Shown here one piece after another: positions 26,628-28,989 of a stretch of DNA of 64,000 bases. A program made the position numbers. Where the stretch lies: assembly GCF_030013595.1 (NCBI RefSeq), contig NZ_CP122768.1. One strand, 5' to 3'. Source of the DNA: Escherichia coli. GTDB lineage: Bacteria > Pseudomonadota > Gammaproteobacteria > Enterobacterales > Enterobacteriaceae. Numbering within the stretch: the stretch's first letter is position 1; every line of letters starts with the position of its first letter.

Positions 26628-28989
26628 TCATCCTCTTTATCGACTCACGCGCTAAACCGGCGCGCCAGTGCGTAACTGCTGTAACAAACGCTCCACGGGA
26701 GCCGCCAGGCCAACTGACGGCGGTTGCGCTAAGTTATACCAGAGCGCATTGCCTTCATCCATGCAGCCGGTGAATGACGACACGGGAAGCCACATAGGCA
26801 CAATATCTAAGTGGAAATGGCTGAAGGTATGCCGAAACGCGGTCAGCTGCGTCAGGTTATCGGCAGAAATCTGTCGTTGCGCCAGCCACTGCCGCAAACT
26901 TTCTTCATCGGCAAACTGCGGGAAACAGTATAAACCGCCCCACAATCCGCTCGGCGGACGCTGCGCCAGCAATACTTCATCTTCGTGCTGTAACAGCAAA
27001 AAGTAGCCGGTGCGCTCTGGCAGCGTCTGTTTCGGTTTTTTGCCCGGATAAAGCGACCAGCTATTGTTGGCGGCGGCAATACATCCGTTTTGTAGCGGAC
27101 AGAGCGAACATTTCGGCTTAGAGCGCGTACAAATCATCGCGCCCAAATCCATCATCGCCTGATTAAACCGTTCCACGCCAACCGCGGGCGTCACCTGCTC
27201 GCTCAAACTCCACAGTTTATTCTCGACCTCTTTTTCCCAGGCCAGCCGCTTACAGCATAGCAGCGCGCCAGCACGCGTTTGACGTTACCGTCGAGAATCG
27301 GAAAGTGCTTACCCAGAGAAAGCGAGAGAATCGCGCCTGCGGTGGAACGCCCGACGCCCGGCAGTGCTGCAACTTCCTCAAAGGTTTCCGGGAATTTACC
27401 GCCGTGTAAGGTCGCCACTTGCTGTGCCGCTTTATGCAGATTGCGCGCGCGGGCGTAATAGCCAAGCCCGGTCCACAAGTGGAGAACTTCGTCGAGCGGC
27501 GCATTGGCGAGATCGGTCACCGTTGGGAAGCGCGCCATAAAGCGTTCAAAATAGGGGATAACGGTCGCAACCTGAGTTTGTTGCAACATCACTTCTGAGA
27601 GCCATACTTTGTAGGGCGTCTTGTCAATTTGCCAGGGCAGCGTTTTCCGCCCGTATTTATCGTACCAGTCCAGAACCTGGGCTGAAAATTGCGACGCTTG
27701 CATGGTCACCGAATTCACTGTTGTTGGGGGCAAGATTGCAGCACAGCGACGGCAGGGTGTAAACCGGAACTTTCCGCAGCCACGGCCTTATCATGCTTGC
27801 ATCCGGCAACTAACTTTGGATAATGCCCGTTTTCAGAACACTTTCACAAGCGACTAAATCTTTATGAAAAACGACGTCATCTCACCGGAATTTGATGAAA
27901 ACGGCCGCCCACTGCGCCGTATCCGTAGTTTTGTGCGCCGCCAGGGGCGACTGACCAAAGGCCAGGAACATGCGCTGGAAAACTACTGGCCGGTGATGGG
28001 CGTTGAGTTCAGCGAAGATATGCTGGATTTCCCTGCGCTTTTTGGCCGTGAAGCGCCGGTGACGCTTGAGATTGGTTTCGGCATGGGGGCGTCGCTGGTG
28101 GCAATGGCTAAAGATCGCCCCGAGCAGGACTTCCTCGGCATTGAAGTGCATTCACCGGGCGTTGGTGCGTGCCTGGCTTCTGCGCATGAAGAGGGCTTAA
28201 GCAACCTGCGCGTGATGTGTCACGATGCGGTTGAAGTGCTGCATAAAATGATTCCTGACAATTCATTGCGCATGGTGCAGCTCTTTTTCCCTGACCCGTG
28301 GCACAAAGCGCGCCATAATAAACGCCGTATCGTTCAGGTGCCGTTTGCCGAACTGGTAAAAAGCAAACTGCAACTGGGGGGCGTATTCCATATGGCGACC
28401 GACTGGGAACCTTATGCGGAACATATGCTTGAAGTGATGTCTTCTATTGACGGTTATAAAAACCTGTCAGAGAGCAATGATTACGTACCGCGTCCGGCAT
28501 CACGTCCGGTGACGAAATTTGAACAACGTGGTCATCGTCTTGGTCACGGAGTATGGGACTTAATGTTCGAGAGGGTGAAATAATGGCAAAGAACCGTAGC
28601 CGTCGTCTGCGTAAAAAAATGCACATCGACGAATTCCAGGAATTAGGATTTTCGGTGGCATGGCGATTCCCGGAAGGTACATCGGAAGAACAGATTGATA
28701 AAACCGTTGATGACTTTATTAACGAGGTTATCGAACCGAACAAACTGGCCTTTGACGGCAGCGGTTATCTGGCCTGGGAAGGTCTGATCTGCATGCAGGA
28801 AATCGGCAAATGCACCGAAGAACATCAGGCGATTGTGCGTAAGTGGCTGGAAGAGCGCAAACTGGGCGAGGTACGCACCAGCGAACTTTTCGACGTTTGG
28901 TGGGACTAAGAAAACATACGGGCGATGACAAATGCAAAACTGTCTGATGCGCTACGCTTATCAGGCTTGGAAAGATGCACAATCGAGTA

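Follow-up and report, generated by a model that had tools for sequence, protein, structure and literature searches.

A one-base deletion in the mutY homopolymer of an Escherichia coli chromosome segment, probably a long-read consensus error

Null alleles of mutY (micA), which belongs to the GO repair system, make Escherichia coli a G:C to T:A mutator, and a MutY protein without its cluster loop and C-terminal domain amounts to a null allele. Homopolymer tracts at contingency loci are usually at least 7–8 bases long, and their length is often polymorphic among close relatives. A tract of this general kind is described in the mutY of Helicobacter pylori. Slippage in that homonucleotide tract abolishes function, and the mutation rate becomes about 26-fold higher (Huang, Kang and Blaser 2006, as related in PMC8875331).

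Sequencing error is the second body of knowledge against which a broken homopolymer must be read. In nanopore consensus sequences of Enterobacteriaceae, the errors are dominated by Dcm motifs, followed by homopolymers (Wick et al. 2019, PMC6591954). For E. coli O157, about 95% of the single-nucleotide variants that are discrepant between nanopore and Illumina data lie in CC(A/T)GG, and it is the central base of the Dcm motif, rather than its methylated C, that the errors strike (Greig et al. 2019, PMC6703438). Methylation-induced transition errors are still present with R10.4.1 (Lohde et al. 2024, PMC11610573). Here we describe a mutY gene that lacks one A of a six-base run next to a Dcm site, in a 64,000-nucleotide stretch of E. 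coli DNA that was analysed as a whole and is called the window.

The split mutY gene

The window is a segment of the E. coli chromosome with an E. coli-like gene order and few IS elements, and for these two reasons we discarded a Shigella origin. The pheV island is followed by yqgA-speC-nupG-mltC-yggX-mutY / trmB-yggL-yggN-ansB, then by speA-speB and the genes beyond. The immediate neighbourhood, trmB / mutY-yggX-mltC-nupG, is the canonical one for MutY. The locus is thus mutY, and its ORFs, as written, encode no intact MutY. The features are as follows.

26652..27703, minus strand: mutY, the gene for the A/G-specific adenine glycosylase; 1052 nt against 1053 expected, in two frames
27203..27703, minus strand: ORF of the N-terminal fragment, 166 aa, consisting of MutY residues 1–158 and 8 out-of-frame residues, RSRINCGV; TGA at 27205–27203
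27231..27235, minus strand: homopolymer and site of the deletion, A5 (T5 on the plus strand) in codons K157–K158; A6 in relatives
27237..27241, no strand assigned: Dcm motif CCAGG/CCTGG, 1 nt from the mutY homopolymer
26652..27206, minus strand: remaining, C-terminal part of mutY, read in the original downstream frame; ORF of 184 aa if opened mechanically at a TTG, with the Fe-S loop and NUDIX_4

The start ATG is at 27703 and the native stop is at 26652; the C-terminal end reads ...RTGAPV*. For the C-terminal part, gene callers choose a 180-aa version with a GTG start. On the plus strand, positions 27231–27235 are TTTTT, with a C on either side (27230 and 27236). The coding strand reads CCTGGG-AAAAA-GAGGTCGAG at the run and GGCTGGCCTGGG-AAAAA-GAGGTCGAGAAT around it. 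Adding one A to the run restores the MutY frame and yields a peptide identical to annotated MutY proteins. Likewise, the single gap is the sole difference from the nearest intact mutY alleles (99.9% over 1082 nt). An intact MutY used as a tblastn query is returned in two pieces, residues 1–159 and 157–350, each with more than 98% identity. Since both fragments match MutY at this level and lie in the canonical gene neighbourhood, the split gene is not a chance pattern of ORFs. An earlier sequence-only reading of this DNA had described a −1 frameshift that splits mutY at a run of five T where six are needed. The sequence, the ORFs and the A6 of the relatives bear this out exactly, and its coordinates and both of its peptide strings are right.

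In the intact 350-aa MutY of the lineage, Pfam places HhH-GPD at residues 36–168, HHH at 100–127, the Fe-S loop at 192–208 and NUDIX_4 at 234–343. In the window, the HhH-GPD domain, the [4Fe-4S] loop and the NUDIX-like domain are all encoded, but they are divided between two polypeptides by the break after K158. The 166-aa fragment keeps most of HhH-GPD and has neither the Fe-S cluster loop nor the NUDIX-like domain. Because the frameshift precedes both the Fe-S loop and NUDIX_4, the deletion would be a null allele if it were real. Ribosomal −1 slippage on G-AAA-AAG would give back precisely the wild-type protein, but its efficiency is probably too low to be of consequence.

Relatives of the window and its private differences

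A second broken gene in the window provides a marker for its lineage. The ornithine decarboxylase gene speC (plus strand, 21566–23701) has a premature TAG at 23513–23515, in codon 650 of 711, the result of T>A at 23514. This truncation, L650*, is real and lineage-wide; it is present in all lineage relatives. Within the public-assembly index, 39 blocks list the truncated SpeC of 649 aa, which was used as the lineage marker. Other routes to relatives served less well. BrxL and a 263-aa island protein, tried as lineage probes, returned mostly unrelated lineages, L058 alone being close. The SNP spectrum against non-lineage relatives is uninformative, as old divergence dominates it, and the relatives found through SpeC-649 were used instead. 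Among complete RefSeq E. coli genomes, none is close to the lineage: the best match has 98.6% identity over 25 kb. VR50 is identical to the window only inside mutY itself.

Five lineage relatives span mutY: GCA_900448395.1 (L023), GCA_021887745.1 (L024), GCA_021646965.1 (L025), GCA_002968075.1 (L026) and SRR10970594 (L027). They are 99.97–99.99% identical to the window over 8.7–22 kb. All five have T6 at the site and a MutY of 350 aa. A sixth relative, GCA_025624855.1 (L028, L037), shows no differences from the window over 35260–60652. Taken together, the six are 99.97–100% identical to the window over 8.7–25 kb. Comparison with isolates of the lineage, which the sequence-only reading had named as a check, thus tells against a mutator lineage: the five relatives that span mutY all carry A6. 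It follows that the lesion was not inherited within the lineage and that a mutator allele could only be very recent and private to the strain. The contrast with speC points the same way. The speC stop is lineage-wide and the mutY lesion is found in one assembly, so the mutY lesion is of very recent origin, if it is real at all.

The first of these possibilities is that slippage in the A6 run, a plausible target for it, recently gave this one strain a mutY null, which would be a moderate G:C to T:A mutator that has not yet left its signature. We regard such an event as unlikely. The position of the frameshift, ahead of the Fe-S loop and NUDIX_4, suits it, since the product would be null. Against it stand the five intact relatives and the spectrum of the private changes. 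Over about 49 kb compared, the window has four differences of its own, the mutY deletion and the SNPs 28967 C>T, 17577 A>T and 14717 C>T; G:C to T:A is not among these three SNPs. As there are just three, the lack of G:C to T:A excludes only a long-standing mutator. The 17577 A>T change gives T193S in a PEtN transferase gene (17001–18500), and an exact look-up of the window's PEtN transferase allele in the public-assembly index returned no record. This transversion is unlike a basecalling artefact and looks genuine, which would give the window's strain some real private divergence; such a real-looking private SNP is a point in favour of a real deletion. The 14717 C>T change sits within an IS903-like element, and 28967 C>T is taken up below, with the Dcm sites.

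Several other features of the window and its relatives were recorded in passing. What is left of a BREX type 1 defence system lies at 7322–15749. In it, brxL (7322–9406) and pglZ (9417–12020) are intact, pglX (12191–14689), about 1,200 aa long in relatives, is reduced to 832 aa by the IS903-like element at 14693–15749, and brxA, brxB and brxC are missing; L023 is arranged likewise. At 1814–1823, the window has the tandem TAACGTAACG. In L055 and L057, this site carries IS2 with a TAACG target duplication; in L058, the site is empty with a single TAACG, and the window has both target copies without the IS. The doubled TAACG without IS2 may be the footprint of an excision or a collapse in the assembly. 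Compared with window positions 1–13873, L058 (GCA_030347985.1) has one SNP and three shortened homopolymers (T6>T5 twice, C7>C6), the longer runs being those of the window. It is the L058 assembly, rather than the window, that is error-prone at these three homopolymers. The yggL-yggN spacer (28932–29036) is variable and interrupts alignments with other lineages of E. coli. In one contig, L004/L016 (ERR4622979), this spacer holds a chaperone-usher fimbrial operon and integrase fragments. At 35317–35324, between a TRAP substrate-binding gene and hemW, the window has GGGGGGGTT, and the non-lineage relatives have GGGGGG-T. A short-read contig of a relative ends close by, at about 35260.

Homopolymers, Dcm sites and the same call in other assemblies

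Outside mutY, the window is accurate. It is 98.3–98.7% identical to E. coli strain B1 over about 37 kb (14693–51708), with three indels in all. Two of these, at 23703 and 35323, are intergenic; the third is the mutY base, and no other indel falls within a coding sequence in this gene-by-gene comparison. Among 37 neighbouring reference proteins, 36 are colinear and frameshift-free, and 35 are full-length and uninterrupted, the exceptions being the split mutY and the nonsense codon in speC. The window is therefore not riddled with frameshifts. It also reads through the 1,057-bp IS903-like element, where the contig of the relative L024 stops, and this contiguity suggests that the window comes from a long-read assembly.

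The position of the mutY run among the homopolymers of the window is distinctive. The 64 kb contain 155 CCWGG sites and 297 homopolymers of at least 5 bases, 101 of which have at least 6. The mutY run is the single one of the 297 that lies within 2 nt of any CCWGG. In the segments that were compared, the remaining runs of 6 to 8 bases agree with those of the relatives (about 55 six-base runs, about 10 seven-base runs and one eight-base run). Among the correct runs is an A6 at 40787–40792, which is 3 nt from a CCTGG. That all other runs of at least 6 bases are right in the compared segments can be counted in favour of a real deletion. On the other hand, the affected run is precisely the Dcm-adjacent one, which slippage alone does not predict.

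The run with the missing base has been written in the same way elsewhere. In the public-assembly index, the 166-aa MutY product is found in 152 blocks and the 180-aa C-terminal product in 133 blocks. The retrieved public contigs with the 166-aa product share the identical A6>A5 change. Together with the window, these A5 contigs represent at least 10 E. coli backgrounds, 37–155 SNPs apart per 7.4 kb; the lineage of the window is not represented among the retrieved A5 contigs. Two clusters comprise several sequencing runs each, with 0–8 SNPs between them. Sequencing runs with adjacent accession numbers carry A5 in different backgrounds, as in L017 and L019, and again in L006 and L008. In six of the 18 distinct A5 contigs, trmB, speC or mltC is frameshifted as well. 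These extra frameshifts sit in G/C runs, two of them adjoining CCAGG, and such G/C-run frameshifts are typical of error-prone, signal-based reads. The other 12 of the 18 show no further broken gene, several A5 contigs are otherwise clean and within 0–1 SNP of a complete genome, and two, L002 and L013, look like short-read assemblies. From the clean contigs and the two of short-read appearance, it follows that some occurrences of A5 may not be artefacts, and the clean contigs so close to a complete genome likewise speak for a real deletion.

The complete RefSeq genomes were scanned with a 42-nt probe that seeds only on the A5 form. A5 was found in 4 of 5,426 complete genomes: ETEC1706 (NZ_CP122904), ETEC1748 (NZ_CP122719), ETEC1701 (NZ_CP122938) and TUM24570 (NZ_CP188167). 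In the three ETEC genomes, which represent at least two genomic backgrounds, mutY is annotated as frameshifted. In the two ETEC regions that were read, the other frameshifted CDSs are confined to the pheV island, and mutY has intact core genes around it. Strain name, host and country link the three genomes to a porcine ETEC project that sequenced on R9.4.1 flow cells, used Bonito 0.4.0, Trycycler and medaka, and had no short reads (PMC10151945); the three appear to be nanopore-only. Since they look otherwise clean around mutY, a nanopore-only, medaka-polished assembly can resemble the window exactly.

TUM24570, a DH5alpha derivative, is of another kind. It has the same A5 and is also annotated as frameshifted, and it was assembled from Illumina and R10.4.1 nanopore data with Hybracter and short-read polishing (PMC13228080). 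No other complete genome sharing its mutY allele has A5. In this strain, the change is more likely real. This lone short-read-polished case suggests that the loss of this A can occur as a true mutation too, and it counts in favour of a recent slippage in the window's strain. The prior for such an event is nevertheless low, with A5 in 4 of 5,426 complete genomes, three of which are apparently nanopore-only.

The missing A is, in our judgement, probably a long-read consensus error, most probably of the nanopore type, rather than a mutation. In that case the run is truly A6, and the strain would have a normal MutY of 350 aa. The A6/T6 run is one base from a Dcm-methylated CCWGG, a context in which basecalling and polishing may undercount the run. 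This undercount would survive in an assembly that is otherwise accurate, and the assembly of the window would have been made from such long reads. The observations are those expected of a consensus error: a one-base homopolymer change is private to one assembly, a Dcm CCWGG lies 1 nt away, and the same call is present in the apparently nanopore-only assemblies of unrelated strains (ETEC1706, ETEC1748 and ETEC1701). It is the combination of intact relatives, no G:C to T:A among the private SNPs, a uniquely Dcm-adjacent run and the same call in nanopore-only genomes that favours this explanation. The sequence-only reading had left two interpretations side by side. Its homopolymer sequencing error is the one favoured here, and its mutator allele finds no support in the relatives, which are intact, or in the private changes, with no G:C to T:A among them.

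The private change at 28967 bears on the same question. It is intergenic, between yggL and yggN, and alters a Dcm site on the plus strand (28966..28970), which is CCTGG in six relatives and CTTGG in the window. The changed base is the methylated second C of the motif; L030 has C there. The change could be a real deamination of 5-methylcytosine or a methylation-linked miscall. We considered the two Dcm-linked private differences, at mutY and at 28967, as proof of nanopore errors, and set this argument aside, as it is weakened by data from ETEC1706 and from Greig et al. Over 27 kb compared with DH5alpha, ETEC1706, nanopore-only by its project match, has no substitutions inside Dcm motifs, and the errors of Greig et al. 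fall on the central base of the motif. For both reasons, the C>T at 28967 may reflect a true deamination.

As a special case of a real deletion, the recurrence of A5 could mean that the Dcm-adjacent A6 is itself a genuine hot spot, acting as a weak and reversible mutY mutator switch across E. coli lineages, with the window as one true case. A mechanism of our own suggestion would be slippage during very-short-patch resynthesis by Vsr and Pol I, which would proceed from the deaminated C in the 3′ direction through the A run. On the coding strand, the A run starts 4 nt 3′ of the methylated C. The identical change in at least 10 backgrounds and the two clusters with several sequencing runs each, 0–8 SNPs apart, would fit such a hot spot. 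So would a different mutY lesion in L014 (SRR33540612), a VR50-like contig, where 4 bp are deleted directly 3′ of an intact A6 (GAAAAAAG-CGAGAAT), right beside the run. No publication known to us connects very-short-patch repair with frameshifts in neighbouring runs. The recurrence of A5, however, follows the sequencing project and the error-prone contigs, and six bases make a short tract by the standard of contingency loci. Nor is the site frequently polymorphic, as a phase-variable locus with a long tract would be: all but 4 of the 5,426 complete genomes have A6, as do 9 of the 9 metagenome contigs that contain the site. The A5 pattern gave no matches among GTDB species representatives. A hot spot of this kind is, therefore, a very improbable explanation.

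Comparison with known systems

A true mutY lesion would make the strain a natural G:C to T:A mutator, with a bearing on the evolution of antibiotic resistance, a phenomenon that is already known. If the lesion is an artefact, mutator screens of nanopore-only E. coli assemblies will keep flagging a mutY frameshift, in the form of a 166-aa and a 180-aa product. A5 at this site is suspect unless short reads back it. The finding is ordinary either way, and its main use is as a warning about a mutY call that repeats in long-read-only E. coli assemblies.

Among known systems, the nanopore errors at Dcm motifs and homopolymers resemble the window in that a one-base change of a run lies near a CCWGG, is private, and is called in the same way in R9.4.1 nanopore-only E. 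coli. They differ in that the described Dcm errors are mostly substitutions within the motif; a deletion in an adjacent A6 is an extrapolation from them, for which recurrence is the support. The mutY pseudogenes of ETEC1706, ETEC1748 and ETEC1701 share with the window the A6>A5 change at the same codons and the intact core neighbours. In contrast, they belong to different E. coli backgrounds, and their nanopore origin is assigned by the match of name, host and country. TUM24570 has the same A5 and differs in being a laboratory strain with a hybrid Illumina and nanopore assembly, in which the change is more likely real.

The remaining comparisons concern mutY as a gene. With Helicobacter pylori, the likeness lies in a poly-A run within mutY; when its length changes, the glycosylase is lost and mutations would become more frequent. 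Slippage is shown experimentally there to abolish function, whereas the run of the window is A6, is near-invariant in 5,426 genomes, and has a change that is probably not real. The classical mutY (micA) nulls would be matched if the deletion were real, as the loss of the Fe-S loop and the C-terminal part would produce a G:C to T:A mutator. The window differs from them in having no excess of G:C to T:A and a lesion that is not common to its relatives.
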